From assembly GCA_963731735.1 (NCBI GenBank), contig CAVSWO010000002.1, forward strand, positions 334,106 to 398,105: DNA of 64,000 nt, written 5' to 3'. This DNA is from Candidatus Kerfeldbacteria bacterium. GTDB taxonomy: Bacteria; Patescibacteriota; Patescibacteriia; SBBC01; CAIJZX01. The notes beneath the pieces were generated by a model that made no database searches, was not told where the DNA came from, and was given only the letters and a program-made list of their open reading frames with translations. Below, in pieces: positions 1,248 through 27,119 of the stretch (position 1 is its first letter; each line of letters begins with the position of its first letter). Made by a program: the position numbers and the translations under genes.

Positions 1248-2747
<1,500 letters not shown>

Positions 2748-3448: not shown

Positions 3449-3640
3449 AGCTACCACCTCCGGTCTGGAATGAGGAACGATTCGACCTTTCCTCAAGTAT
3501 AGCACCAACGCGGCGGCTGCCTAGCCGGGTTGGCAGTACCGGGGAGCGGGTGTATACTGTCTATAGATGTTGAATGTACGCCTAATTTCAACCAACGCCC
3601 GGGCTGACGGGCGGTTTTGTCATTAAATCGAATACGCTCT

Positions 3641-4279
3641 ATGCGCAAAACCTCATTAATTCTCGGAACAGCCGCGCTGTTGTTACTTGGCGCCGCTTGT
3701 ACCAAAACCGTCAACACGAATCAAACCACGAATGATGACCACGCGATGGAAGATTCGAATGGGAATACGAATCAGGCTATGGAAAACCAAAATAGTAATT
3801 CAGCGGTCAAGTCGGAGGACAATACCAACGTCATGCATGATGAAGAGATGATGAATGATACCACCAAGCGCAATGCCAACGAATCCGACGATGCTGCGGT
3901 GGTTACTTCGAACGGAAGTCTAACGGTTACCAAACCGGAAAAAGACGCGGATGTTGAATCGCCGTTTGCGGTGGAAGGAAAATCATCCGCCACCACGGTC
4001 TATGTTCGACTAAAGAGCGCGTCGGGCAAGGAGTTGTTTACCGTACCAGTGACGGTTCGCGATGGCGCGTACCATGTGAATCTCACCTACCAGGTAACCA
4101 ACACCACCAACGGCGTGGTTGAAGTTTTTGAGAAGGACGCGTCCGGTAACGAAACCTTGCTGACCAGCGTCACGATCACCCTCAAGACGGAAAGCAGCGA
4201 TACCACAAATTCTAACGACAACGAAAATAGCAATTCGAACGACAATACCAATAGTGACGATTCTGGGAGCGACAGCTAA
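3641..4279 (+). CDS. secreted/lipo-protein with N/T/D-rich low-complexity regions and an Ig-like (GerM/Gmad2-like) beta domain
   Basis: Signal peptide MRKTSLILGTAALLLLGAAC; central ~100 aa beta-rich segment flanked by N/T/S/D repeats. Confidence 0.55.
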   Translation: MRKTSLILGTAALLLLGAACTKTVNTNQTTNDDHAMEDSNGNTNQAMENQNSNSAVKSEDNTNVMHDEEMMNDTTKRNANESDDAAVVTSNGSLTVTKPEKDADVESPFAVEGKSSATTVYVRLKSASGKELFTVPVTVRDGAYHVNLTYQVTNTTNGVVEVFEKDASGNETLLTSVTITLKTESSDTTNSNDNENSNSNDNTNSDDSGSDS

Positions 4280-4407: not shown

Positions 4408-4484
4408 GGGCGATTAGCTCAGGTGGTTAGAGCGCGTCACTGATAATGACGAGGTCCGAGGTTCGAATCCTCGATCGCCCACCA
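4408..4484 (+). tRNA. tRNA-Ile (anticodon GAT)
   Basis: Acceptor GGGCGAT/ATCGCCC, anticodon loop CTGATAA, T-loop GGTTCGAATCC, encoded CCA. Confidence 0.9.
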
Positions 4485-14657: not shown

Positions 14658-14799
14658 CGAGTTGGTGGGTCAGCGACAATTCCCAGGCTTGTCCGGCGAC
14701 CGGACGTGGAGAGAAGGCGTCCGTCGGAAGTTCGATTTGTTCTTCTCCGGCCTGGACAACTGTGCGGGTCGGGTGCACAGACACAACGGTGATTGTCAT
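14611..14799 (-). CDS. small DUF3006-like protein
   Basis: TVVSVHPTRTVVQAGEEQIELPTDAF...; translationally coupled to hsp20 upstream. Confidence 0.35.
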   Translation of the reverse strand: MTITVVSVHPTRTVVQAGEEQIELPTDAFSPRPVAGQAWELSLTHQLDEREKIDLLNQHLKH

Positions 14800-15257
14800 G
14801 CCTCTTCCTCTTCCGTAATGGTGATAGTTGGTTCGGCCGGTCGTTCAATCTTCGGGAGCATCACGCGCAAAATACCGGCTTTGATGTTGGCGGTGACATT
14901 ATTGGCATCAACGTCAACCGGCAATATAATCGTCCGGGAAAATCCACCCCAGTAGCATTCCTGATAGAGAAAGGTTCCGATTGATCCCTGATCGTCTACC
15001 CGGCGTATACCCTTAATAGTCACCACATCATCATTCACCGTAATATCTAGGTCTTCCGCCCGAACACCGGCGATAGCGGCGCGAATCACAATGTTGTTGG
15101 CGGTGTCTTCATAGACATCAACCGCCAGTTGTCCGGAGTAGTCTGCTTCGGACCAGGTATTTGCCTCGCGTGCTTCATCGGCCGCGGCCGCGAGCTCAGC
15201 CACATAATCTTTGGCCTCGGCGACGTCCGGTGATGGTGTTTTTTCTTTCTTTGGCAT
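14796..15257 (-). CDS. Hsp20/alpha-crystallin family small heat shock protein
   Basis: Alpha-crystallin domain ...NIVIRAAIAGVRAEDLDITVNDDVVTIKG...GGFSRTIILP. Confidence 0.85.
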   Translation of the reverse strand: MPKKEKTPSPDVAEAKDYVAELAAAADEAREANTWSEADYSGQLAVDVYEDTANNIVIRAAIAGVRAEDLDITVNDDVVTIKGIRRVDDQGSIGTFLYQECYWGGFSRTIILPVDVDANNVTANIKAGILRVMLPKIERPAEPTITITEEEEA

Positions 15258-15374
15258 AGCCCGTTAGAAATCTACTTAGGTAGTAAGTATCGCTCCTTAA
15301 TGTCCGGCCCGCATTGAAAGGAAATTTCTAACGGGCTATGCGCGCAGAATAGCATAAATCGGCGCCGTTCTCAA
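15258..15374 (-). promoter_or_regulatory. hsp20 promoter (TTGAGA-N17-TATTCT) plus a 14-bp perfect inverted repeat bracketing the whole 5' leader
   Basis: IR arms agcccgttagaaat 15258-15271 / atttctaacgggct 15324-15337; AAGGAG SD sits in the enclosed loop. Confidence 0.4.
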
Positions 15375-15424
15375 GTGATTGGGCAAAAATGTTTGGTAGG
15401 GGCTAGTGGAGGTTATCAGAACTA

Positions 15425-15946
15425 CTATCCTTGCCTCTGTAAGTAAGACGCTCGATCAAGCAGGGTTTTCGTACTCTGAACCCGATCAATAAAAAGTGTG
15501 CCTTCTAAATGATCATATTCGTGCTGAATGATCCGGGCCAACAAACCTTTGGCTTTGATATGAAACCATTCGCCTTTTTGATCTTGTGCCTTTACTTCAA
15601 TTGCACTGGGGCGCTTTACCTTGCCGAATAGATCCGCATGGGCAACGCTCCCACAGCCCTCATACCCATCCGTTTGAATTCTCGATTTACGGATAATGAC
15701 TGGATTAATGAAAACTATCTCTCCTTCTTGGCCTTTTTGAGTTCGAAATCTCGTAGATCGAGGATATGCGATAAAAATACACAAACCAACGCCAATCTGC
15801 GGTGCGGCAATACCAACTAAAGCTTCCCGACGCATGGCTAGGTTTAGTCGATTGAGAAGTCTTTTTGTTATAGCACTTTTTGGATTACGAACCTTTTTCG
15901 CCTTTGAGCGAATTATCCTCTCTCCGATTTGAGATATCTTTTCCAT
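15425..15946 (-). CDS. def: peptide deformylase
   Basis: GIAAPQIG, EGCGS, QHEYDHLEG motifs. Confidence 0.9.
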   Translation of the reverse strand: MEKISQIGERIIRSKAKKVRNPKSAITKRLLNRLNLAMRREALVGIAAPQIGVGLCIFIAYPRSTRFRTQKGQEGEIVFINPVIIRKSRIQTDGYEGCGSVAHADLFGKVKRPSAIEVKAQDQKGEWFHIKAKGLLARIIQHEYDHLEGTLFIDRVQSTKTLLDRASYLQRQG

Positions 15947-15950
15947 CAAA

Positions 15951-16256
15951 TTACCGATCTTTTTTGACTTGTCTTTTAGCAATGGCCCCAGCAAACAATC
16001 TTATTGCCGATCGTTTCTCTTTGCTGTAAATAATTGGCACACCAATCAATTGTTTACATCCTGAACAAACGAGTTTAGCGCCCTCACGAATTTCTCCTTT
16101 AGAGTCAGTGATTCGGTCGGTATACAGTCGTTTCAAAAGACCTGGTCCGTCTTTTTGATAGAAGCAAAGAAATTGATTGCACGATTCGCAATACAATTTT
16201 AGCAAACGGGACTTTCCTCCCCTACTGCGCCTAAATTTGTCAGATTTGAGCTTCAC
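15951..16256 (-). CDS. small zinc-ribbon protein (2x CxxC), hypothetical
   Basis: CESC...CSGC; basic. Confidence 0.45.
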   Translation of the reverse strand: MKLKSDKFRRSRGGKSRLLKLYCESCNQFLCFYQKDGPGLLKRLYTDRITDSKGEIREGAKLVCSGCKQLIGVPIIYSKEKRSAIRLFAGAIAKRQVKKDR

Positions 16257-16687
16257 TTTAATGTATCTACAAATGCTTTGATAGTTGGGGAGAAGTGTTG
16301 GAAAATCATATACAAACTTTCGGCTTCTTTTTGCTCTCCTATGACTGACAAATCTTTTCCGAGACCATATGCGACGCCAGCCTCGATGTGGGCTGATTTT
16401 CCGGCTGGCAGTAACAAAATGACGTGTTTGGAATTCTTCAAGGCCTCCATATCTACGTCAAAAACCCTTTTTACCTCTGGGTCAGTTTGCCAGTTCGGGA
16501 TGTTTTCGAATTGCTCCATAAAGACTTCGGGGTCGTGGTTTGGATCGATCGTTTTCAATTGGTACCCTTTCCCATCACCCTCTAAAAAACTATATACAGT
16601 TTTCCCTTTCTGACGAATCTGCTGGACGAGTTCCTTTACTTGATCCTTATTTCTCCAACGTGAAGCTACAAAATAGTCGTATTCCAT
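16253..16687 (-). CDS. nucleoside 2-deoxyribosyltransferase-like protein
   Basis: HIEAGVAYGLGK motif and overall pattern; from memory. Confidence 0.45.
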   Translation of the reverse strand: MEYDYFVASRWRNKDQVKELVQQIRQKGKTVYSFLEGDGKGYQLKTIDPNHDPEVFMEQFENIPNWQTDPEVKRVFDVDMEALKNSKHVILLLPAGKSAHIEAGVAYGLGKDLSVIGEQKEAESLYMIFQHFSPTIKAFVDTLK

Positions 16688-16761
16688 AAAAAAAGTATAC
16701 CACGGTTCTAACCTAAGGTTGCCCTATCACGATAGGGTCTGTAAACATTGATGAAATCCTT

Positions 16762-16781
16762 TGGCAGCCCCACGGGGAATC
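16762..16781 (+). repeat. 20-bp direct repeat of the tRNA-Glu 3' end (19/20 identical to 24974..24993), attR-like island boundary
   Basis: tggCagccccacggggaatc vs tggTagccccacggggaatc, same orientation. Confidence 0.6.
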
Positions 16782-16782
16782 C

Positions 16783-16944
16783 TCCTCCTTCGCGGCTCGC
16801 GACCGTGCGCGGTTCCCGCTCGCCACTCACCCGGAGCCGGGGTTCCTCATCGAGCGCCACCGGCGCTCGCTTCGGATACCCTTCGATTCGCTGTGTAACT
16901 AATCCGGCGACTCGCCGCCACTGGCGTGACGACAACTCGCCGGA
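16783..16944. other. GC-rich (~65% GC) highly structured ~160-bp element flanked by a 10-bp direct repeat TTGGCAGCCC (16761-16770 and 16945-16954); candidate ncRNA or miniature insertion
   Basis: Multiple perfect hairpins (GAGCGCC-ACC-GGCGCTC; AATCCGGCGA...TCGCCGGATT); composition differs sharply from flanks. Confidence 0.3.
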
Positions 16945-16996
16945 TTGGCAGCCCTAACTATAAATTGTTGGAACCGGGTAGTTGAGGAGCTGTCAG

Positions 16997-17626
16997 CTAT
17001 ACCAGCACCATCCACAAAGTTCCGGCCAGCACGGGTACAGTGACATTATCAAACCCAAGCGGGGTATACCGTTCTGTAAGGGTAAGGATTGGCGGTGCAA
17101 CGATTGCCGCAATCCATGACCCATGCGCAGACGGTACAAGTACGAACCCAATCCCGATGAGTAATGAAACGCTTAAAAAAACTATCGAACCACGTATCCC
17201 TTCCCACCAGGGCCGCTGTGGGAGTATTCGCTTGTTTTTCCCAAATAATGCGGCTAAAGAATCAGAAAAGGTTAACACCAGTATTCCGTACACGAAGGCA
17301 GACATGTGGTTTGGGAGAGTTAAGGCAGCTGTGGCGGCAACACCAATCGGAAAAGCCATTGCACCGTGCGTTTGGCGGACGACTTGATGAATGCCCCCAA
17401 ACCACTGTTTTCGCTTTGTAATCACAAGAACTGCCGTGAAACCACTCGCAATGATGTAAATACCGATGCGATCTACGAGTAACGGCAGAAAAAGAGTGAA
17501 CACTCCGCTGAGAACGTGCGCGAGGCGCCTAGTGCCTTCGGCTTGAAAAATTCGTTTCGAATACAGTAACTGGGAGATACCTAAAATAATTAGATATACA
17601 CCCGCGGACATAGCTAGATTGATCAT
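16997..17626 (-). CDS. CdsA/CarS/polyprenol-kinase-like CTP-transferase family membrane protein
   Basis: TFSDSLAALFGKNKRILPQRPWWEGIRGS resembles the CTP_transf_1 signature (SD..A...GK.....P.KTWEG); ~7 TM helices. Confidence 0.5.
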   Translation of the reverse strand: MINLAMSAGVYLIILGISQLLYSKRIFQAEGTRRLAHVLSGVFTLFLPLLVDRIGIYIIASGFTAVLVITKRKQWFGGIHQVVRQTHGAMAFPIGVAATAALTLPNHMSAFVYGILVLTFSDSLAALFGKNKRILPQRPWWEGIRGSIVFLSVSLLIGIGFVLVPSAHGSWIAAIVAPPILTLTERYTPLGFDNVTVPVLAGTLWMVLV

Positions 17627-18540
17627 AAGAGTTTTGAAAATACCGCAAATGACCGTATCGATTCTACGCCTGGATATGGCATTGCATTAACATTATTTCC
17701 TGTCCGGACAAGCAGGTACTCCACGCTGGTAATGCCATTCTGGAGCGCATCCTGATGAGCTTTACACGCAAGGGCGATGGCAAGATGTTTGCGTTGATAG
17801 TCTGGTAACACAGCCACTGTTTTCATTAATAGAACTTCGTCTCGCTGTGGATCCCGTAATGTATACAGGTATCCGACTATGTGTGTCTCGTGTCGCGCAA
17901 CATATACGCTTGCGCGTGATTGTTTGATCATTGGAAGATACAAATATGCGAACTCATCCCATGATAAATCAACCAGTCCCTTTTCGCCCACAAAAGCCTC
18001 TCGGGAAATTGTATACAGCGCCTGCAATTCATTTGTTAAAACATCTATTGATGCACATTCGATGTCGAACCCATCGTGTTGGATTTGAGGAAGTACCGGT
18101 TCGATGAGTGATAAGAGTGTCGGAATGTCTGTACGACGAAAACTCTCGTACGTACGTAGGTGGTGGTAACCATGCAAGATAAGCGTGTTTGGATACCAGA
18201 ATGGGTTGCTTGGTTCAAGTGACGTCGGGGTCTCGCCGCTTATTTGAAATCGGTGACTGTGCCACATGGTGAAATCAACGGGCCCAACAACTTCCTGGCA
18301 ACCGAAGGATTTGAGCCAGGCTTCTGCGTCACGAAGGGACGATACATCTGCCTCCGGTGATGATGCCGAAAAATGACCAACGAAACCAATTTTGTTTTTG
18401 GACGCAGCAAGCCGCCGATCAATAAATGCAGTGAGATGGAATGACCCATCGCCTGAAGAAAATTCCTTCCACTGCCCAAACTGGTGCCAGGGGTTTTCTT
18501 TGGCAAGCCAGGATTGATACTGCTTTTCATGTGTAGTCAT
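17623..18540 (-). CDS. GNAT-family acetyltransferase-like protein
   Basis: VAVLPDYQRKHLAIALA (motif A-like); start trimmed to ATG 18540. Confidence 0.5.
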   Translation of the reverse strand: MTTHEKQYQSWLAKENPWHQFGQWKEFSSGDGSFHLTAFIDRRLAASKNKIGFVGHFSASSPEADVSSLRDAEAWLKSFGCQEVVGPVDFTMWHSHRFQISGETPTSLEPSNPFWYPNTLILHGYHHLRTYESFRRTDIPTLLSLIEPVLPQIQHDGFDIECASIDVLTNELQALYTISREAFVGEKGLVDLSWDEFAYLYLPMIKQSRASVYVARHETHIVGYLYTLRDPQRDEVLLMKTVAVLPDYQRKHLAIALACKAHQDALQNGITSVEYLLVRTGNNVNAMPYPGVESIRSFAVFSKLL

Positions 18541-18551
18541 AATCGCAAGAG

Positions 18552-20171
18552 TTAACGGAGAATTTTCACAACCCCGGTCGAAGCGTTGACCTCGAGCATT
18601 TGACCGGTTTGCACCTGCTGTGTGATGCCTGGTAACTGTACCACGCACGGGATACCGCATTCGCGTGAAACAATCGAGGCGTGCGAGAGAATACCTCCGT
18701 ATTCGACCGCGACACCGGAGACAAGACCGAACAGGGGTGTCCAACCAGGATCGGTGTGCCGAGCAACCAGAATGTCTCCCTTTTGAACCAATGATGCGTC
18801 AGGAAAATCGAGCACCACCGCACGTCCACGAATGGTACCGGGCGATGCGCCGATTCCTTTCCACGTGCTCGTACCTTGGCCCTTTTTGTGTCGGCTTAGG
18901 TCTTCCACAATTTTACCATCAACCTCAAAAAAACGATCGGGTGCGGGTGTGTATGCATATGCTGCGAATTGATTTTGTCGTTCCTGAATCTTCGTATGGA
19001 GTAGCTCTTTCGACATGGTTCCATCAATAATACGCGGTATTTCTTCAAGGGTACACCAAAAGATATCTTTTGAAGCCTTGAGTTGGTGGTGCCGTTTAAG
19101 ATCTTTGCCGATCGCTAAGAATAGAGTTCGAACTGCTGAAAAAACACGTGCACGAAGGAGGCGAGTTTGTTCACGATATGCAATGTGTCGTTCGATTCGA
19201 CTTTGAGAGTTGTGTTTGGAGGCTTGCTTGTCAGGACCAAAGTCAATTTTCTGAGAACTTATCGGCGAGCTATTTTTACCTGTATAGGCACGGATGAGGT
19301 TAAAGAGTACGCTTGGTTGATCCTGTAGCGGTGGGGTCTCGAGTTTGAGCTCATTGGGGAGTCGCGCCCCGTACGTTTTGAGGTATTGGCCAAATACTTT
19401 TCCTAAGTCTGAAGGTGGATTCGAGCAGAGATAATTCCATAATTCAACATCTCGTTTTTGTACCAGCAATGTATGGGCAGTCTGGTCATCGTGAATCGCC
19501 CCTTGGAGTTGTTGCAGTCCAGAATATTGACGCGGCAACGTTGTTTGCCATGTGAATCCGAGGAGAGAGCCGTCCTGTTTTTCCCCAACATACGTCATAA
19601 GGAGAAAATCATTGTCTGTGGTGATGTGCCACATAGGCAAAAGCGTATCCGCAAACCGATTGAATTCTACCCAGAGCTGTTCCGCTTCGCGTAAAGTGCT
19701 AGCTTTTTCATTCAAATCGCGCAATATTGTTTCAACCCGACGTTGGAATCGCTCAATATCCCTCCGAAAAAAAACGACCCGATAAAGAAGGACGAAAGGG
19801 TAGAAGAAACGGAACCACCAAGGGGCGTGAGTTTCACGGAGCAATGTTTGAACCTGTGGCACGGTCAGCATCCGCTCGAGATTACGGACATTTTTCCGAT
19901 AGCCAGGAAACAAAGACGCAAACCGGTACCAATTCAACATATGATAGTAGAGCCGGCCTGATCGCGCCCCGACGAGATTGGAAAAAACAGTATCGTATTG
20001 CTGGATAGTTCTCCAGGGCAATCCAGATGCATGCGCCATACCGCGGTATACCTCGCGATAGACTCGCATCGCGAATGATGTCGTCAGGGGAGTTGTTACT
20101 CCCGCATAGCTCTCGGAAATATTTGCGTTGTCCCAAAGAATTCGTTCATCCATAAAACCAGAGCACCCCAT
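18552..20171 (-). CDS. PEP-utilizing enzyme family protein (PpsA/rifampin-phosphotransferase-like); C-terminal mobile His domain
   Basis: GGILSHASIVSRECGIPCVV near C-terminus; N-terminal NISESYAGVTTPLTTSF. Confidence 0.65.
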   Translation of the reverse strand: MGCSGFMDERILWDNANISESYAGVTTPLTTSFAMRVYREVYRGMAHASGLPWRTIQQYDTVFSNLVGARSGRLYYHMLNWYRFASLFPGYRKNVRNLERMLTVPQVQTLLRETHAPWWFRFFYPFVLLYRVVFFRRDIERFQRRVETILRDLNEKASTLREAEQLWVEFNRFADTLLPMWHITTDNDFLLMTYVGEKQDGSLLGFTWQTTLPRQYSGLQQLQGAIHDDQTAHTLLVQKRDVELWNYLCSNPPSDLGKVFGQYLKTYGARLPNELKLETPPLQDQPSVLFNLIRAYTGKNSSPISSQKIDFGPDKQASKHNSQSRIERHIAYREQTRLLRARVFSAVRTLFLAIGKDLKRHHQLKASKDIFWCTLEEIPRIIDGTMSKELLHTKIQERQNQFAAYAYTPAPDRFFEVDGKIVEDLSRHKKGQGTSTWKGIGASPGTIRGRAVVLDFPDASLVQKGDILVARHTDPGWTPLFGLVSGVAVEYGGILSHASIVSRECGIPCVVQLPGITQQVQTGQMLEVNASTGVVKILR

Positions 20172-21024
20172 ACATTGAGAAGAAAATAGCGATACAGACG
20201 CCCTGATATACCCGCACAGATTTCTGGGTTAGATTTCGTATGTAGCGACTCGCAGAATAACTATAGGCTGCAAAAAGTATACACCAAAGCAGTGCTGGCA
20301 CCCACTGCTGGAGGATTACGAGACCTAATGTAATCATTGTTACCAGAATAACGCCACCACCGATAACTGCCCACACCGGCCCGAGTTGGGCCGAATAGGT
20401 ATCACGACTTATGTTTTCGTTTGCTGGAATACGTATCTTTCGTATCCATTCTAAAAATACCATGCTGGCATATGCAAACACCAAAAATATGATACTGGGT
20501 GAATGCAATCCCATTGTGCCGAGCGCAATAATCATAATTACCCACAAGCCCAAAAACGATTGGATTGTCATGACTGCATTATAAAGAAAGAAGCGTGATC
20601 GTAGCTGATCCCCCAACAAAAAATCTTGACCGGCAATGGCAGTAAGGAGTAGTACAGCTGCCATGTGTGGGAGAAAACTCAAATTAATAAACGCAACAAT
20701 ACATAGTTCAAGCATCATGAGGACGAACGCAATTATTCGTAGCTCACGTGCCTGAACTAAGCCCCGCGGTAATGGTCGCTGTTTATAGTAGAGACGGTCA
20801 TGGTTTTCATCGCGGATCTCGTCAAACAGACGAATATGGCCGAGATAGAACACCCCGAGAACAACTAATCCAACGCGGGGCAGAATATCGAACCCCAGCA
20901 TCCATTGATCTGCGTTGATGTGATGCAAAGTCTCGGTATACGCTGCGGTGGTCAACAATAAGAAACCTATCGGGAACCGCTCCGATTGAAACCGCCAGAT
21001 CTTCCGGATAAATGAACTATCCAT
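20146..21024 (-). CDS. UbiA-family prenyltransferase
   Basis: DEIRDENHD...RPLPRG (NDxxDxxxD ... RPLxxG) and 8-9 TM helices. Confidence 0.6.
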   Translation of the reverse strand: MDSSFIRKIWRFQSERFPIGFLLLTTAAYTETLHHINADQWMLGFDILPRVGLVVLGVFYLGHIRLFDEIRDENHDRLYYKQRPLPRGLVQARELRIIAFVLMMLELCIVAFINLSFLPHMAAVLLLTAIAGQDFLLGDQLRSRFFLYNAVMTIQSFLGLWVIMIIALGTMGLHSPSIIFLVFAYASMVFLEWIRKIRIPANENISRDTYSAQLGPVWAVIGGGVILVTMITLGLVILQQWVPALLWCILFAAYSYSASRYIRNLTQKSVRVYQGVCIAIFFSMYGVLWFYG

Positions 21025-21027
21025 GAT

Positions 21028-22098
21028 TTATCCTATACGCTCAAGAATAAAGAAGTTGCCATACATAAACCCATTGTCTTGATTCCAGAGCTTTGATGAT
21101 TCGTCCTGTAAAATGCGGAATCCGAACTTCGGAAGATCCACAATTGGTGGGTTAGCCAGATTTATCCAAAAACAGACGCGTCCACCAAGAGATACATGTT
21201 TACCAAGAACTGCAAAAAAATCCCGAAACTGACGATCGGAAAATCCTTCAAAAATGTCAGATAGATGAACTTTAGTGAAGGTCCCAAGAGGTGGAAGTGC
21301 TTGTACAACATCTTGTGTAATGAGTTGCCCATCATGACGAAGCCGCTGCCAAAAGTGCCATGCATCATGACGAAAGTATGGTGGGATGGTCTGTTGATAA
21401 CGACCCGTCAATATATACTCGATTAACCAGTTTGAGTGCACGGGAATTTCAGTTAGCCCACGAAATGCTCGTTGCGCATAAATTGACCCCGACGAATCAT
21501 GCGCGTATTTACGGAAAGCGTAATCACGCCCGAATTGATGTAATAATTGTTTTCCATAAAAAAATTTTAATCCTAATCGCCAACGCCACGTATTCCACAC
21601 TCGGCGATAGAGCGCAGACTGTTCTTCCAGTGATTGAGCTTGGAGAATTTGGTGTATGTTTTTTCGCGAGACCAAAAGCGGTAGAATGTATCTAGAAAAA
21701 AATTGAAAATATCTTTCAAGGCGCCCGGTATGGATAATTCCTTGAGCAATATCTTTCAACCGTGTATTCCAAAATTGTCTATCGTTTGGATCTACGATAG
21801 GTAATACGTGGTGCTGATATACGTTAGCGCGACTGCGTGAGTCATGAATGCCAATAAAAGCAAGAAACTCTTTATATGACAGCGCTTCTGCTGCGGCGGC
21901 GATAAGTTTTACTAGCCGAGTCTGATCGGGATTTCGATCAATGGAAACGAGTTGGTGTGGATGATCAGACAACACAGCGACGGGCGCCCCGCCAGCGGCA
22001 GTCACTGTCAAAACACGATCATCGGGCTGTACTACAAGCGCGCGTCGAAGGATGTCGGTATCCTCCCAGGTTTGTGTATATGGTATGCGATTTTTCAC
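21028..22098 (-). CDS. DUF3419 / BtaA-like (SAM:diacylglycerol 3-amino-3-carboxypropyl transferase-like) protein
   Basis: N-terminal YTQTWEDTDIL motif; from memory. Confidence 0.45.
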   Translation of the reverse strand: MKNRIPYTQTWEDTDILRRALVVQPDDRVLTVTAAGGAPVAVLSDHPHQLVSIDRNPDQTRLVKLIAAAAEALSYKEFLAFIGIHDSRSRANVYQHHVLPIVDPNDRQFWNTRLKDIAQGIIHTGRLERYFQFFSRYILPLLVSRKNIHQILQAQSLEEQSALYRRVWNTWRWRLGLKFFYGKQLLHQFGRDYAFRKYAHDSSGSIYAQRAFRGLTEIPVHSNWLIEYILTGRYQQTIPPYFRHDAWHFWQRLRHDGQLITQDVVQALPPLGTFTKVHLSDIFEGFSDRQFRDFFAVLGKHVSLGGRVCFWINLANPPIVDLPKFGFRILQDESSKLWNQDNGFMYGNFFILERIG

Positions 22099-22111
22099 AA
22101 TATCCGGTGTG

Positions 22112-23254
22112 CTACCCGGCCGGCTGTCGTAAGAGCACCCGGAACAAATTCATGGAGCCATATTCAAATCCTACCCTTGCGCCATGCATCCAAAGATACC
22201 ATAAACGATAGAAGGGCCGACCAAACGCGCGTTCAATCTCTTCCTGATGACTTTCGAGATTATGAATCCACGCATTCATGGTATAGACATAATCCAATGT
22301 ATCATCTCGGAACTCTTCAATCCGGAACCCGGCCTCTGTGGCGGCCGCCATGATTTCATCGCGGCTGGGAAGATAGCCCCCGGGAAATACGTATTTCTGT
22401 GTCCAACGGTCAAGTGGTCGCGGTTGGTATCGGCCGGTCGATTGCACGACTAGGGGTGCCCCGGGTTTTAGGCGTTTACCAACCTTTTGAAAATATTTCT
22501 GGAGATGTTTTCTCCCCACATGCTCAAGTGATTCCAACATCATAATCCCGTCATACTTTTCGTTGGGCATATTGGAGATCATGTCTCGATTCTGTACCGA
22601 GACGTGCTTAGCTAAATCGTGTTTACGAATCTGTTCACGACTATAGGCGACCTGTTCAGAGCTCCGGGTAATACTCAAAATGTTCCAACCATAGTTCTCT
22701 GCTGCAAACAGCGCAAAATTTCCCCAGCCACTTCCGAGGTCTAATATTAACGCATCCTTGGGAAGTGCTAGCCAAGTACTCAGGAACCGGAGTTTATTCT
22801 CCTGAGCCTCAATAAGGGAATCTGTCTGGGTGGCATATTTCCCTCCGGAATATGACATGGAATCCTTACCTAGCAACAACTCAAAGAATGTATTTCCAAT
22901 ATCGTAATGAAATGAAATTTGACGCTGGCGAGACTGTGGTTGGCTGAGAGACGCAAGAAAGGCTTGCATTTTATTCCTCCGTGATGGATGGTTGCCTTTA
23001 AATGTGTGGCGAAGTCGTAAATATGCATCGATATCTCCATCGATGTTTACCGCCCCCTCCATGTATGACTCGCCAAAGCCGAGCGATCCCTGAGTTATTA
23101 TTCGCTGTACTGTTTCTGAATTCTTGATGGATATTGAAAATGCCGTGGGCCCTGCTTGACCAAACCGCATTTCTTTTCCGTCCCAATATTTTATAAGAAA
23201 CCCAGGACCTTCGTAAGTTTGGAAGTAGTCTTCAAGTACCTGACGATTATCCAT
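22112..23254 (-). CDS. cyclopropane-fatty-acyl-phospholipid synthase family SAM-dependent methyltransferase
   Basis: LILDLGSGWGNFALFAAENYG (SAM motif I) and CMAS-type flanking regions. Confidence 0.8.
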   Translation of the reverse strand: MDNRQVLEDYFQTYEGPGFLIKYWDGKEMRFGQAGPTAFSISIKNSETVQRIITQGSLGFGESYMEGAVNIDGDIDAYLRLRHTFKGNHPSRRNKMQAFLASLSQPQSRQRQISFHYDIGNTFFELLLGKDSMSYSGGKYATQTDSLIEAQENKLRFLSTWLALPKDALILDLGSGWGNFALFAAENYGWNILSITRSSEQVAYSREQIRKHDLAKHVSVQNRDMISNMPNEKYDGIMMLESLEHVGRKHLQKYFQKVGKRLKPGAPLVVQSTGRYQPRPLDRWTQKYVFPGGYLPSRDEIMAAATEAGFRIEEFRDDTLDYVYTMNAWIHNLESHQEEIERAFGRPFYRLWYLWMHGARVGFEYGSMNLFRVLLRQPAG

Positions 23255-23973
23255 ATACTAAATCTAGCGGTTTCGATTCCAAAAACATTCTCTCGTCGGA
23301 CACTATGCCGCGAGCGTTTTTTTCTGGATCGAAATACTCCTATGACGGTGAGTAAGAGAATAAACTGAGCGATTGCCATTCCCCAGCCAACCAGATACAT
23401 TAGCGTATCTTGTACATCCATGACACCAACAAGCAATAACACGCCTCCAATAAAAAGCGATACGAGAGCGATTGAGAATGTTTGTGCACTAGTTTTATCG
23501 CTTTCCCGGATATCTTCACTGGTAAGCTGTACTGCGTGGAGCACAACGGCAGCCATCAACACGATATACATGAAGCTTACGATATCGCTGGGTTGAAAGT
23601 AAAAGAGACCATCTGTCGAAAACCCTGGATTTGATGGCAAAGCTAGGCGAACAAACCAAAGTACCACCGCATACACCGCCACGGATGCGGTGAGGAGCTG
23701 TTGGGTATTTCGTTGGAGTTTGCTGACTGCCGCGCGCGTAAAAAAGAGTAGCGCGCCAATGTAAACTGCTGCTCCCGCGCTAATCCAAAAATTCAATGAG
23801 TCTCCTGCGGGTTTTGCGATAACGGCTGCTGACCAAACCCCGAAAGCTATGCCGGTCAAAAACAGCCCCCAGCCCATTGCCTTGGTTGTTACAGTTCGAT
23901 GCAGGCGGGGCAACAACAATCCAGCCAGGATTGTAGAAACCGTACTGAAGATGAAAAAGATGATTATTAACAT
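23191..23973 (-). CDS. polytopic membrane protein, hypothetical
   Basis: ~7 TM helices; 3' end overlaps the annotated start of the CFA-synthase ORF (true start of that gene probably internal). Confidence 0.4.
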   Translation of the reverse strand: MLIIIFFIFSTVSTILAGLLLPRLHRTVTTKAMGWGLFLTGIAFGVWSAAVIAKPAGDSLNFWISAGAAVYIGALLFFTRAAVSKLQRNTQQLLTASVAVYAVVLWFVRLALPSNPGFSTDGLFYFQPSDIVSFMYIVLMAAVVLHAVQLTSEDIRESDKTSAQTFSIALVSLFIGGVLLLVGVMDVQDTLMYLVGWGMAIAQFILLLTVIGVFRSRKKRSRHSVRRENVFGIETARFSIWIIVRYLKTTSKLTKVLGFL

Positions 23974-24117
23974 ACAGTTAAGTATTGAAATAAGTGCTTG
24001 AATTATAGCTCAATTCCCATGTAAAGTAAACGAACTTCTTAAGTGATAGTGCCCAGATTGAGTTCCAAAAGGAAGAGCGTGATTGGAGGCTTCTAATAGG
24101 CTCTCTTCTAATCAGTT

Positions 24118-24882
24118 CTACCTTTTAGGTATCGCGGTAACTGGCCTCGCCTGGAGTATTACAATTTGATTTTCCCTTGTGCATGCCCATTCAATATCCA
24201 GGGATTTCCCATAAATATTCTCAATAGTTATGGCCCTTCGTCCAACCTTATTAAGAATTGGCAACACCGTTTCCAAAATAATGGATGAGAATTCTCCGTG
24301 CGACAAGACCTCACAAACACCAGAGTTTTTATTTATTGAAACGGTTAGGGGTGATACCTGTCCACTAACGATTTTATCGCCTAATCCGGGGCTAACCTCG
24401 ATCACAAGTTTTGACACGTCGTTCGTTCGTGGGTCGACCGTAAAACAAATTCCCGAGTATTTTGCATCGATCATTTCTTGCACGATAACCGCCATCCTCA
24501 TGTTTCCTTGTAGGCCAAGGTGTTTACGATATTCTTTAATTCGATGGCTGAAACGAGATTGTGCACACCTTCGAATAAAAGAAAGGGCGTCTTTCATTTT
24601 TACATTAAGGAAGGAGTCAAACATGCCAGCATAGCTCACGCTTTGGCCATCCTCCGAGACGCCTGAACTTCGAACTGCAAACAAGCTATAGGGCTGTAAT
24701 TTCTTCTTTTCTTTCTCCGTCAATATCGTAGAATCACTGATTATATCAATTGTCTCAACGTCTACAACAAAAGTTTTTGGGATCTTTTGACCACCTTGGG
24801 CTAAACGCTGAAGATTAAAAGCTTTGCCACCAATCTGGGAGACAGTGAACTTTGTTTGAGCGGTGATTTCTTTAAGAATCAA
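24118..24882 (-). CDS. PEP synthase/PPDK N-terminal ATP-grasp (PPDK_N) domain protein, stand-alone
   Basis: GGKAFNLQRL...VRSSGVSEDGQSVSYAGMFDSFLNV. Confidence 0.65.
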   Translation of the reverse strand: MILKEITAQTKFTVSQIGGKAFNLQRLAQGGQKIPKTFVVDVETIDIISDSTILTEKEKKKLQPYSLFAVRSSGVSEDGQSVSYAGMFDSFLNVKMKDALSFIRRCAQSRFSHRIKEYRKHLGLQGNMRMAVIVQEMIDAKYSGICFTVDPRTNDVSKLVIEVSPGLGDKIVSGQVSPLTVSINKNSGVCEVLSHGEFSSIILETVLPILNKVGRRAITIENIYGKSLDIEWACTRENQIVILQARPVTAIPKR

Positions 24883-24973
24883 GGTCTCGAAAGGTTGTAA
24901 GCAAAAATAATTTTATCGTTTCAAGCGGCATCTTTATATAGTTTCATACTACCACAAAACGCCAGCATATTTC

Positions 24974-25048
24974 TGGTAGCCCCACGGGGAATCGAACCCC
25001 GATTACCGGCTTGAAAAGCCGATGTCCTAACCGTTAGACGATGGGGCC
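24974..25048 (-). tRNA. tRNA-Glu (anticodon TTC)
   Basis: GGCCCCATCGTCTAACGGTTAGGACATCGGCTTTTCAAGCCGGTAATCGGGGTTCGATTCCCCGTGGGGCTACCA; G1-U72 wobble. Confidence 0.9.
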
Positions 25049-25284: not shown

Positions 25285-25414
25285 AGCAATACATGCCAAG
25301 CCTGCATCCTGAACCGTTTCCGGCGGAGCCGGATCCGGCCTTTAGGCCGGAAGACGATGGGGTCAGGAGCGGGGAGAATATACGCGAAATATGCTGTGAT
25401 GTCAATCCGATTTG

Positions 25415-25977: not shown

Positions 25978-26090
25978 TATCCCCTCCTGGTTACATGTCA
26001 TGTACGGTTCCGCGTGATGCGGCAAAGAGCTGCCCGAATATAGGTGAAAAGCCTGTTTTTGTCAATACCTATGGTACACTACGTAATCAT

Positions 26091-27119
26091 ATGAGAATTT
26101 TAGGAATTGAAACTTCCTGCGACGATACAGCGGTTGGCATCGTACACTACCAACGCCGCCGATTTACCATTGAGGCCCAAGTTACCGCCTCCCAAGCGCT
26201 GGTGCATAAAAAATACGGCGGGGTCGTCCCGGAAGTTGCGGCTCGAGAACATGCTGTTACAATTATTCCGACCCTCAAAGCAGCGCTCAAAAAAGCTGCG
26301 GCGTCTTGGGTCGATATTGATGCAATTGCGGTGACTGGTGGGCCGGGACTGAATACGGCGCTGTTGGTTGGGGTCGAGACTGCCCGCACCTTAAGTTATA
26401 GTCTCAAGAAACCACTGATTCGTGTCAATCACATCGAGGGACATATCGCCGCCAACTGGGTAACCAAAGAATCAATCACCTTTCCCGCCATCGCCCTCGT
26501 AGTTTCGGGGGGTCACACCGAGTTACTGCATATCAAACACATCGGCCGGTATTCATTGATTGGCCGTACGCTTGACGATGCGGTGGGTGAGGCCTTTGAT
26601 AAGGTCGCCAAAATGCTCCGTCTTCCGTATCCGGGCGGACCGTCAATTGCAAAAGTCGCGCTCACTGGAAACAAACGGGCCTTTAGATTTCCGGTTTCGC
26701 TCATGCAAAAGGGGAATTTGGATTTTAGTTACGCCGGGTTAAAAACGGCGGTGCTCTACGAATTGCGGGCGCATAAAAAATTGGACACGAAACTCCGGTG
26801 TGATGTCGCGGCCAGCTTTCAGCAGGCAGCCATCGCACAGTTGGTAAAGAAAACCGAGCGCGCGCTCGAAAAGACAGGCGCCAGGTCGTTATTATTAGCC
26901 GGTGGCGTTGCGGCAAATACGGTCCTACGGAATGAGCTCAAAATTGTAATGCAAAAAAAGTTCCCAACCACCAAATACTTCCAGCCACCAATCGCGTTGT
27001 GTATGGATAATGGGGTGATGATTGCCATGGCTGCTGCGCTCCGTCTGGATAAACAAAAGAAGTTGGCGTTCACCCCTTGGAAATTGCTTCGTGCCGATCC
27101 GAACTGGGAGCTGGTTTAA
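26091..27119 (+). CDS. tsaD: tRNA N6-adenosine threonylcarbamoyltransferase
   Basis: MRILGIETSCDDTAVGIV...; Kae1/Gcp family conserved throughout. Confidence 0.95.
   Translation: MRILGIETSCDDTAVGIVHYQRRRFTIEAQVTASQALVHKKYGGVVPEVAAREHAVTIIPTLKAALKKAAASWVDIDAIAVTGGPGLNTALLVGVETARTLSYSLKKPLIRVNHIEGHIAANWVTKESITFPAIALVVSGGHTELLHIKHIGRYSLIGRTLDDAVGEAFDKVAKMLRLPYPGGPSIAKVALTGNKRAFRFPVSLMQKGNLDFSYAGLKTAVLYELRAHKKLDTKLRCDVAASFQQAAIAQLVKKTERALEKTGARSLLLAGGVAANTVLRNELKIVMQKKFPTTKYFQPPIALCMDNGVMIAMAAALRLDKQKKLAFTPWKLLRADPNWELV

Follow-up and report, generated by a model that had tools for sequence, protein, structure and literature searches.

Results

Organization of the locus

The window analysed here, a stretch of 64,000 nucleotides from a Patescibacteria genome, contains an intact gene for tRNA-Glu(UUC), for which ARAGORN and Rfam agree on ends, minus strand and anticodon (ttc), located between hsp20 and tsaD (Table 1). 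The hsp20 leader has a 24-nt inverted repeat (15254-15277 / 15318-15341), and tsaD, the true start of which is probably near 26094, keeps its linkage to tRNA-Glu across the clade. A sequence-only reading of this DNA had described eight co-oriented genes between two copies of the tRNA-Glu 3´ end, and all eight are indeed on the minus strand.

Table 1. Features of the hsp20, tRNA-Glu and tsaD interval (window coordinates)
Feature	Coordinates	Strand	Evidence
Native left flank: hsp20 (14796-15257) and leader	14796-15341	minus	domain search; synteny in relatives
Segment C: low-GC (0.42) DNA past the distal repeat, not at this position in relatives	15342-16761	minus	GC, GC3; Pfam, NCBIfam, PHROGs; relatives' synteny
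Peptide deformylase (def), segment C	15425-15994	minus	Pfam, NCBIfam, PHROGs
Zinc-ribbon-like ORF, 101 aa, segment C	15951-16256	minus	Pfam, NCBIfam, PHROGs
Nucleoside-deoxyribosyltransferase-like gene, segment C	16253-16687	minus	Pfam, NCBIfam, PHROGs
Distal repeat copy (iii), the copy of the sequence-only reading; minus-strand GATTCCCCGTGGGGCTGCCA, G at discriminator position	16762-16781	minus	sequence, repeat search
Body of GC-rich (68%) non-coding module	16782-16945	minus	fold z = -4.9; no Rfam family; homologous modules in L068, L065; no conserved reading frame
Short tRNA-end copy (ii), minus-strand GGGCTGCCA	16946-16954	minus	sequence; alignments; spacing to GAATCGAAGGG
Cargo gene 8: 209 aa, no family match	16997-17626	minus	ORF; Pfam, NCBIfam searches; L070 homologue 38% identity
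Cargo gene 7: GNAT acetyltransferase, 305 aa in the L030 gene call	17623-18540	minus	Pfam, L030
Cargo gene 6: Rph_4th and PEP-utilizers swivel domain, 533 aa in the L030 gene call; C-terminal part of split PEP-synthase-like enzyme	18552-20153	minus	Pfam, NCBIfam, L030
Cargo gene 5: UbiA-family prenyltransferase	20146-21024	minus	Pfam PF01040
Cargo gene 4: DUF3419 protein, BtaA-like SAM:diacylglycerol 3-amino-3-carboxypropyl transferase family	21028-22098	minus	Pfam PF11899, 7e-52
Cargo gene 3: SAM methyltransferase like cyclopropane-fatty-acyl-phospholipid synthase (CMAS)	22112-23254	minus	Pfam PF02353, 4e-60; NCBIfam matches below cut-off
Cargo gene 2: membrane protein, 223 aa in twin contig L030	23303-23973	minus	ORF comparison; L070 homologue 42% identity
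Cargo gene 1: PPDK_N-type ATP-binding domain alone, 254 aa; N-terminal part of split PEP-synthase/rifampin-phosphotransferase-like enzyme	24118-24882	minus	Pfam PF01326, 9e-47; NCBIfam partial matches, models of 800-900 aa
tRNA-Glu(UUC), intact; proximal repeat copy (i) = its 3´ 20 nt (24974-24993), discriminator A73	24974-25048	minus	ARAGORN; Rfam tRNA 64.6 bits; sequence
Native right flank: tsaD	25995-27119	plus	domain search; conserved linkage

The cargo is a rare operon of a DUF3419/BtaA-like protein, a CFA-synthase-like methyltransferase, a UbiA protein, a split PEP-synthase-like enzyme and a GNAT protein. It lies only 91 nt from the tRNA 3´ end on the side of gene 1, and the stop codon of gene 8 is 42 nt from short copy (ii). 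In gene 2, a 1-nt deletion at 23325 prolongs the ORF to 23191. A search of 5.8 billion proteins returned only eight other homologues of gene 4 at E<=1e-20, of which the closest is 48% identical. The 8.0-kb operon is predicted to function, probably, in the modification of a membrane lipid or prenyl-lipid. Seven of its genes are collinear on another contig (L070; 38-54% amino acid identity) of a MAG whose own tRNA-Glu/tsaD locus (L063) is without the operon.

Composition and boundaries

As proposed in the sequence-only reading, tetranucleotide composition was compared inside and outside the block, which proved deviant (distance 22-27 vs 11-15). GC content is 0.42-0.50 over 15-25 kb vs 0.51-0.56 elsewhere, and GC3 is 0.36-0.48 in 11/11 block genes vs 0.53-0.61 in flanking genes. 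By all three measures the DNA is unlike that of the host, which is part of the signature of Islander islands. The low GC may in part be a property of the cargo genes and not of recent transfer, because the operon is low in GC in the relative as well (0.47-0.52 in L070 vs 0.575 for the genome).

The low-GC block extends from about 15,300 to 24,973 and does not start at the distal repeat (16,762), where the earlier reading had expected the break between presence and absence. Segment C, beyond this repeat, has a GC content of 0.42 and a GC3 of 0.36-0.46, is not syntenic with relatives, and is absent from the tRNA-Glu/hsp20 interval in L061, L065 and L069. The distal fragment is thus not the outer boundary of the foreign DNA. 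No tRNA fragment turned up where segment C ends on its outer side: aligned locally to 15258-15424, the tRNA scored no better than shuffles.

Three copies of the tRNA 3´ end

The whole 64 kb was searched for the 20-mer TGGYAGCCCCACGGGGAATC allowing <=3 mismatches. It has two sites: the 3´-terminal 20 nt of tRNA-Glu (24974-24993; plus-strand reading TGGTAGCCCCACGGGGAATC) and, in the same orientation, TGGCAGCCCCACGGGGAATC (16762-16781). These are 19/20 identical, with 0 matches expected; none of 100 dinucleotide-preserving shuffles of the window contained one, which bears out the earlier claim of a direct repeat beyond chance. The single difference is at the discriminator position, which is A73 in the tRNA and G in the copy. 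Identity between copy and tRNA breaks off within the T-loop. Such fragments stop there after 20 nt in the window, 21 in L068, 22 in L065 and 23 in L014, and the coincidence in four genomes fits a common crossover region.

A third, short copy was overlooked in the earlier reading. The sequence TTGGCAGCCC at 16945-16954 is identical to 16761-16770, that is, short copy (ii) and its next base match the end of copy (iii) at 10/10 positions. The older fragments (ii) and (iii) both have G at the discriminator position, where A is found in every tRNA-Glu seen. Copy (ii) is only 9-10 nt long, and its significance depends on its identity to (iii) and on its position, which is where the intact tRNA 3´ end sits in L065 and L068. 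The cargo segment probably has its distal junction at copy (ii), TGGCAGCCC at 16946-16954. The arrangement thus has an intact tRNA with a same-orientation fragment on the side of the displaced end, as in Islander islands, and direct-orientation copies (24974-24993, 16946-16954 and 16762-16781) that delimit successive blocks, as in tandem arrays.

The locus in related genomes

The closest relatives found have TsaD proteins 65-72% identical to that of the window and share the order VanW - 63-aa gene - hsp20 - ... - tsaD - valS. Between hsp20 and the 3´ end of tRNA-Glu lie 347 bp in L061, 55 bp in L069 and, with the module counted, 213 bp in L065, compared with 9.7 kb of low-GC DNA in the window, which implies insertion at the tRNA 3´ end. 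The comparison with related genomes suggested in the sequence-only reading reveals the block, apart from the module in L065, as missing between tRNA-Glu and hsp20 in all three. The only other copy of the arrangement is in L030, which is the same strain (99.99% identity).

In every relative examined the hsp20/tRNA-Glu interval is different between conserved flanks, as is usual for a hot spot of flank-mediated exchange. One possibility is that the whole 9.6-kb block, including fragments and module, came in one step from another Patescibacteria strain by homologous recombination in the conserved flanks (tRNA-Glu/tsaD and hsp20), e.g. after DNA uptake, such that the fragments are scars from the donor lineage. 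This would agree with the lack of an integrase, the uniformly low GC of cargo and segment C, and the discriminator G shared by both fragments and unlike the resident tRNA. We regard it as unlikely: no donor-like genome with the arrangement was found, L030 being the same strain, and the 68% GC module does not fit the low-GC composition. It differs from the layered history favoured below solely in the place where the layering occurred.

The tRNA-Glu of this locus is a demonstrable integration hot spot, because genes for large serine recombinases, or their decayed remnants, overlap its 3´ end in relatives. ORFs of ~510 aa with Resolvase, Recombinase and Zn_ribbon_recom domains are found at the island edge, against the att site. 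In L003, L006, L009 and L031 they run 37 nt into the 3´ end of tRNA-Glu before they stop, and are adjoined by low-GC defence cargo. The last 12 codons of these ORFs are read from the strand opposite the tRNA, over its 3´ end and terminator hairpin; we know of no earlier description of a recombinase C-terminus encoded in this way. For these elements, neither attP nor the far ends were recovered. Recombinase fragments occur in L001, L007, L010 and L014, and in the first two C-terminal remnants adjoin the tRNA. Tandem arrays are seen in L014, where a recombinase C-terminus ending in a 23-nt displaced tRNA fragment is followed by 7.6 kb (HlyD, AcrB) and the intact tRNA, and in L010, where a truncated recombinase ending in TGGTAGCCC is followed by 7.1 kb with a second recombinase and then the tRNA. 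The recombinase-bearing examples are all distant relatives (TsaD about 50% identical), and none is among the nearest.

In the window, the earlier observation that no integrase is visible still stands. Pfam and NCBIfam found no integrase domain in any of the 11 island genes, and tblastn of three relatives' recombinases against the window returned only a trivial 10-17-residue match encoded by the tRNA itself. The window has no integrase of the Resolvase, Recombinase and zinc-ribbon type at an element edge, nor does any of its blocks have its own integrase, unlike in tandem arrays as defined by Islander, in which each block has one.

A GC-rich module between tRNA-end copies

Copies (ii) and (iii) bracket a module that, end copies included, comprises 193 nt (16762-16954) with 68% GC, copy (iii) forming its 3´ end. 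It has a hairpin with 21-bp arms (16901-16946), the motif CCGCGCACGG at 16803-16812, and the motif GAATCGAAGGG at 16879-16889, which is the reverse complement of the T-loop and could base-pair with the T-loop portion of copy (iii). In L065 and L068 the module stands by itself, without cargo, with tRNA-Glu on one side and a partial tRNA copy on the other. Homology is solid for the window and L068 only (three collinear motifs) and weak with L065. Module and flanking tRNA-end copies are absent in L061, L063 and L069, and this patchy distribution fits an inserted piece. No conserved reading frame was found in the module, ARAGORN detected no tmRNA, and Rfam gave nothing at gathering thresholds and chance-level matches at E<=10.

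These observations bear on the proposal that a single 8.2-kb element entered tRNA-Glu once, with the 20-bp repeats as attL and attR, and later lost its integrase. The direct orientation and geometry are correct for such an event: one repeat belongs to an intact tRNA, the opposite one is a 3´ fragment, and the cargo lies between the two. Integrative elements also use the same site in relatives. We nevertheless find it improbable. The distal repeat with 164 nt of GC-rich DNA is a unit that stands alone beside tRNA-Glu in L065 and L068, a third tRNA-end copy separates module and cargo, and 1.4 kb more of low-GC, non-syntenic DNA continues past the distal repeat up to the hsp20 leader.

A very different reading of the module is that it is no passive scar. 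It would then be either a gene for a functional, structured RNA that is linked to tRNA-Glu and has a tRNA-like 3´ tail with a terminal CCA, or else a non-autonomous miniature element. RNA or element would need the 20-mer, and the cargo would have landed between tRNA and module. The fold is more stable than shuffled sequences (z = -4.9 in the window, -4.3 in L065), the distance from the tRNA-end copy or preceding CCA to GAATCGAAGGG is kept at 55-59 nt in 3/3 genomes (window, L065 and L068), and a closing helix between GAATCGAAGGG and the T-loop copy is found in all three, with one A-U to U-A exchange, in lineages that differ by ~30% in TsaD. We think this reading highly improbable, since the exchange is trivial, each strand being a copy of the host's own nearly palindromic T-loop, and shorter core folds in the window are no better than shuffles (z = -0.8). 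In addition, there is little conservation of the inner helices, promoter and terminator signals do not exceed chance, no Rfam family or tmRNA matches, only three examples exist, and the module is missing from the equally close L061, L063 and L069.

Discussion

We propose that the region from about 15,342 to 24,973 (~9.6 kb) is, with reasonable probability, a composite, integrase-less genomic island in a hypervariable hsp20 ... tRNA-Glu ... tsaD locus of a Patescibacteria genome. The tRNA-anchored island of the earlier reading thus survives in its insertion at the tRNA 3´ end and its deviant composition, but it is larger and more layered than an 8.2-kb unit. According to this model, site-specific integrative elements would cross over in the 3´ part of tRNA-Glu, in T-loop or acceptor stem, by means of integrases that in relatives would be the large serine recombinases. 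Every arriving element would carry its own copy of the tRNA 3´ end, such that the tRNA is regenerated and the former 3´ end displaced outward as a fragment. Repeated insertions followed by loss of recombinase genes would leave layers parted by tRNA-end fragments. In the window these would be, in order, tRNA (i), the 8.0-kb cargo operon, the 9-nt fragment (ii), the 164-nt GC-rich remnant or mini-element, the 20-nt fragment (iii), the 1.4 kb with the def, zinc-ribbon and deoxyribosyltransferase-like genes, and the native hsp20 leader. The order of events and the acting enzyme are what we infer from this arrangement, and the island is presumably immobile at present.

Several observations count against this explanation. 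The window has neither recombinase gene nor remnant, and the recombinase examples are from distant relatives. Segment C has no outer tRNA fragment, and fragment (ii) is short. The discriminator G in both old fragments is not predicted by a simple in-situ history. Finally, module homology with L065 is weak, and the cargo operon is low in GC in its relative too.

The locus is a composite, decayed tRNA-anchored island, and as such belongs to a known phenomenon; the pairing of recombinase and target seen in relatives is modestly unusual. It resembles the tDNA-anchored genomic islands defined by Islander and TIGER (Hudson et al., 2015, PMC4383910; Mageeney et al., 2020, PMC7192596) in the intact tRNA and displaced direct 3´ fragment with foreign-composition DNA between them, in the T-loop crossover region, and in the absence of this DNA from the site in related genomes. 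It differs in having three fragments, in the fragment not being at the outer end of the foreign DNA, and in the lack of an integrase gene, which Islander requires in the island, as a rule beside the regenerated tRNA (PMC4383910; PMC7192596). Furthermore, relatives have large serine recombinases at this tRNA, as opposed to tyrosine integrases. tRNA genes are overwhelmingly targets of tyrosine integrases, and the use of t(m)RNA genes by S-Int (14/297) is unproven (PMC7192596). The relatives carry ~510-aa proteins at the island edge like elements with phage-type serine integrases, but the window itself has none.

The layering is also reminiscent of tandem island arrays and of the accretion of integrase-less, att-flanked elements, such as the CIME-like cis-mobilizable elements of Streptococcus thermophilus. 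As in these, direct att-like tRNA fragments part unrelated cargo blocks and the inner blocks lack a recombinase, and L010 and L014 have an equal layout with the recombinase still there. Unlike in these, no resident helper element is visible in the 64 kb, and the fragments are of unequal length (20 and 9 nt), pointing to decay or to crossovers at different points.

What has been reported of genomic islands in Patescibacteria so far comes mainly from predictions based on composition, with neither att sites nor enzymes (PMC12455944). The present locus is a well-resolved instance that changes no paradigm. Together with its relatives it offers a concrete hot spot in the hsp20 / tRNA-Glu / tsaD interval, a plausible enzyme family in the large serine recombinases that end inside the tRNA, and a display of decay stages from intact recombinase through truncated remnants to none. 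A more far-reaching idea, which we rate as quite unlikely, is that the module (16762-16954) is a miniature non-autonomous integrative element or tRNA-Glu-linked structured RNA whose movement or maintenance depends on large serine recombinases of one clade. In Patescibacteria these enzymes would specifically target the T-loop of tRNA-Glu, and their own C-termini would be read from the strand opposite the tRNA 3´ end. If so, the locus would illustrate in detail how serine integrases use a tRNA gene, and would also provide a minimal, att-only passenger. The cargo operon, for its part, may modify membrane lipids in organisms that are thought to scavenge lipids.

The repeated tRNA-Glu end and the extent of the inserted block

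The plus-strand reading of the 3´-terminal 20 nt of tRNA-Glu(UUC), TGGTAGCCCCACGGGGAATC, occurs again at 16762-16781 in identical orientation and with one difference. With up to three mismatches allowed, the 64 kb hold these two copies only and shuffled sequences hold none, which confirms the direct repeat proposed in a sequence-only reading of the region. The sole mismatch is at the discriminator base (A in tRNA-Glu, G in the copy at 16762-16781), and identity between the two stops within the T-loop. The eight co-oriented genes described between the repeats are also there, all on the minus strand, and integrase is indeed absent: no recombinase domain was detected, and tblastn with three recombinases of relatives matched only tRNA-encoded residues in the window. 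The locus has the tDNA-plus-fragment signature used by Islander but lacks the integrase that Islander requires (PMC4383910), and its fragment does not form the outer boundary, as would be expected. For Patescibacteria, existing reports of genomic islands come from composition-based prediction (PMC12455944). The feature is real, and its interpretation as an island bounded by the repeat is partly correct. A second match, to the tRNA-Glu 5´ end (18/22, 11 nt exact), lies 316 nt upstream of tRNA-Glu within a 151-aa ORF and may mark a scar on the 5´ side or have arisen by chance, the rough expectation being about 0.03.

Features of the tRNA-Glu region and of related loci (L numbers are contigs or loci of relatives)
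Feature	Sequence	Position	Strand	Remarks
tRNA-Glu(UUC)	window	24974-25048	minus	ARAGORN and Rfam
PPDK_N ATP-binding domain protein	window	between repeat copies	minus	
Membrane protein	window	between repeat copies	minus	
Methyltransferase resembling CFA synthase	window	between repeat copies	minus	
DUF3419 (BtaA-like) protein	window	between repeat copies	minus	
UbiA prenyltransferase	window	between repeat copies	minus	
Rph_4th/PEP-utilizers protein	window	between repeat copies	minus	
GNAT acetyltransferase	window	between repeat copies	minus	
209-aa protein	window	between repeat copies	minus	no family match
Match to tRNA-Glu 5´ end	window	25347-25368		
Inverted repeat upstream of hsp20	window	15254-15341		
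def	window	15425-15994		
16S rRNA	window	1249-2746		
Gmad2-domain ORF	window	3617-4279		
tRNA-Ile	window	4408-4484		
Large serine recombinase ORF	L003	7787-9313		
Large serine recombinase ORF	L006	6900-8429		
Large serine recombinase ORF	L009	6929-8458		
Large serine recombinase ORF	L031	1-1062		
Recombinase C-terminal remnant	L001	2127-2447		beside tRNA-Glu
Recombinase C-terminal remnant	L007	1884-1988		beside tRNA-Glu
Tandem array at tRNA-Glu	L014	5-8393		
Tandem array at tRNA-Glu	L010	623-8834		
Inverted tRNA-Glu	L063	7963-8037		
Inverted tRNA-Glu	L072	1-75		
Operon	L070	2343-9563		membrane protein, CFA-synthase-like methyltransferase, DUF3419, UbiA, Rph_4th/PEP-utilizers, GNAT, 207-aa protein

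Relatives were sought with TsaD, encoded 1 kb from tRNA-Glu. Among GTDB representatives and JGI metagenome contigs the best identity was 52% and the matches were Patescibacteria (CPR) MAGs, nearly all of which have tRNA-Glu(UUC) adjoining tsaD on the opposite strand; synteny left of tRNA-Glu was not found in these contigs. Closer relatives, with TsaD 65-72% identical, were reached via a larger protein collection and contig look-ups, and the contigs L061, L063, L065, L067, L068, L069, L071 and L072 were fetched. A twin contig, L030, is from the same strain in another data set and is 99.99% identical with the same structure. The closer relatives have the conserved order VanW, 63-aa gene, hsp20, variable interval, tsaD, valS, and the hsp20-tsaD interval is unlike in each relative examined. 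Between hsp20 and the tRNA-Glu 3´ end there are 9.7 kb in the window (hsp20 start 15257, tRNA end 24974), against 347 bp in L061, 213 bp in L065 and 55 bp in L069. In L063 and L072, tRNA-Glu is inverted relative to tsaD and hsp20, which fits site-specific inversion at the locus. Elsewhere in the window, 16S rRNA is followed by a Gmad2-domain ORF and tRNA-Ile; with no 23S rRNA in the 64 kb, the rRNA genes seem to be unlinked.

The 9.7-kb interval coincides with a compositional block. GC is 0.42-0.50 across 15 to 25 kb and 0.51-0.56 in all of the remaining window, and GC3 is 0.36-0.48 in all eleven block genes and 0.53-0.61 in flanking genes. The proposed comparison of tetranucleotide composition inside versus outside also showed a difference, with a distance to the rest of the window of 22-27 for the block versus 11-15. 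Insertion at tRNA-Glu is therefore borne out, but not as an 8.2-kb unit: composition and the synteny breakpoint together place the start of the block just past the hsp20 leader, at ~15,342 instead of 16,762. Outside the distal repeat, a further three genes are still in deviant, non-syntenic DNA: those for peptide deformylase and for a 144-aa protein matching a phage nucleoside-deoxyribosyltransferase family, and a zinc-ribbon-like ORF. At the outer edge, 15258-15424 was considered as a fourth tRNA fragment in degenerate form and rejected, since its local alignment scored no better than those of shuffles.

Peptide deformylase is normally a housekeeping gene. Here def is situated within the low-GC block; in locus L073 it adjoins a Mur ligase gene and has rpoB and rpoC a few genes away. 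The genome's only def may be the one on the island; the top 120 homologues, which are uninformative on extra-copy status, include no second def from the source contig. Directly upstream of hsp20 is a 24-nt inverted repeat (92% complementary, 40-nt loop) that includes the start codon and could be a regulatory hairpin or a heat-shock-gene operator.

A GC-rich module bracketed by tRNA-end copies

Read in tRNA sense, a non-coding stretch of 68% GC, the module (16762-16954), has the 20-mer at 16762-16781 as its 3´ end. In L065 and L068 an intact tRNA-Glu is followed by 144-147 nt of GC-rich sequence and a 21-22-nt copy of the tRNA 3´ end, free of cargo. The window and L068 modules have three collinear motifs in common, GAATCGAAGGG, CCGCGCACGG and the tRNA-end copy, and the L065 module has only the first and last of these. 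In all three, GAATCGAAGGG sits 55-59 nt after ...GGGCTRCCA, which is the end of the intact tRNA-Glu in L065 and L068 and a third, short copy at 16946-16954 in the window; with its adjoining base, this copy matches the end of the 20-mer copy at 10/10 positions. L061, L063 and L069, which are as close as L065 and L068, lack the module, as do 40 further loci. Searches of 45 loci with nhmmer and a covariance model returned the three known modules and ordinary tRNA-Glu T-arms, and the pattern was not found in viral contigs. We read the module as an inserted piece, either an element remnant or a mini-element bracketed by tRNA-end copies, which leaves an 8.0-kb cargo between the intact tRNA-Glu and the module's proximal copy.

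These results make it very unlikely that the region is a single 8.2-kb element with the repeats as its attL and attR. Its boundary would be wrong, as deviant DNA extends past the distal repeat; the distal repeat belongs to the module; and there is a third tRNA-end copy. The least probable of the explanations centers on the module as a functional RNA or mini-element. Its fold is far more stable than those of shuffles (z = -4.9), and the closing helix between GAATCGAAGGG and the T-loop copy is kept in the window, L065 and L068 with one A-U to U-A exchange. This exchange is, however, expected regardless, the T-loop of each host being nearly palindromic and copied by both strands, and the inner helices are conserved poorly. 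Neither tmRNA nor any other known RNA family came out of ARAGORN or of Rfam at gathering thresholds and at E<=10, zero reading frames are conserved across the three modules, and a promoter and terminator scan around the module gave nothing above chance. Downstream of the module the window has the 144-aa gene and L068 a 141-aa gene; these two are unrelated, and the module therefore does not serve as leader to a conserved gene.

Serine recombinases at tRNA-Glu and the origin of the proposed layers

In four relatives (L003, L006, L009 and L031) a ~510-aa protein with Resolvase, Recombinase and Zn_ribbon_recom domains points towards tRNA-Glu, and low-GC defence cargo lies beyond its gene. These ORFs stop 37 nt inside the tRNA-Glu 3´ end; the last 12 codons are tRNA-Glu antisense, which encodes the terminal residues LLVAPRGIEPLSAP, and the preceding codons span the tRNA-Glu terminator hairpin. 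In L001 and L007 only C-terminal remnants are left. In L014 a displaced tRNA fragment of 23 nt terminates the recombinase C-terminus, and 7.6 kb with HlyD and AcrB and then the intact tRNA-Glu follow. In L010 a truncated recombinase, whose displaced tRNA fragment is only TGGTAGCCC, is followed by 7.1 kb with another large serine recombinase of a different kind, and then by the intact tRNA-Glu. Taken together, these states show successive insertions into a regenerated tRNA-Glu and recombinase decay within the clade. The L003 recombinase has no match in viral contigs. tRNA genes are mainly targets of tyrosine integrases; as targets of serine integrases they were described as unknown in 2015 (PMC4383910) and as rare and unproven, at 14/297, in 2020 (PMC7192596). 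The pairing of recombinase and tRNA-Glu in the relatives, outside the window, is therefore the less ordinary element.

We consider it reasonably probable that the region is a composite, decayed tRNA-anchored island with layers separated by tRNA-end fragments. This reading has weak points: the window holds no recombinase, the recombinase-bearing examples are distant relatives, the middle tRNA fragment is short, and no fragment marks the outer edge of the low-GC DNA beyond the distal repeat (15342-16761). Import of the whole block en bloc, via recombination in the conserved flanks, would account for the missing integrase and for the discriminator G common to both old fragments, which an in-situ history does not. 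It differs from the composite island solely in where the layers arose and, although unlikely, is the strongest of the alternatives.

The cargo operon

From their domain set, the cargo genes might tentatively be assigned to membrane-lipid or prenyl-lipid modification. The PPDK_N and Rph_4th/PEP-utilizers genes correspond to one enzyme of the PEP-synthase/rifampin-phosphotransferase type split in two. In a collection of 5.8 billion proteins, homologues of this type of DUF3419 protein are very rare: there are eight at E<=1e-20, the window's own protein aside, the best being 48% identical. One of them is in MAG GCA_040960375.1 (contig L070), where a run of seven genes, starting with the membrane protein and finishing with the counterpart of the 209-aa protein, has the gene order of the window at 38-54% amino acid identity. 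That operon, which may serve lipid head-group or prenyl-lipid modification in a CPR bacterium, has unrelated flanking genes and lies away from tRNA-Glu; L063, which is this MAG's own tRNA-Glu/tsaD locus, is without the seven genes. The operon thus behaves as a movable accessory unit within the lineage. Its GC in L070 is also below that of its genome, so that low GC alone is no proof of recent transfer. Relative to the otherwise identical twin contig, the window has a 1-nt deletion at 23325 (CC versus CCC), which is a true frameshift or else an error of assembly. It gives the cargo membrane protein a different C-terminus (260 aa versus 223 aa) and an overlap with the next gene.
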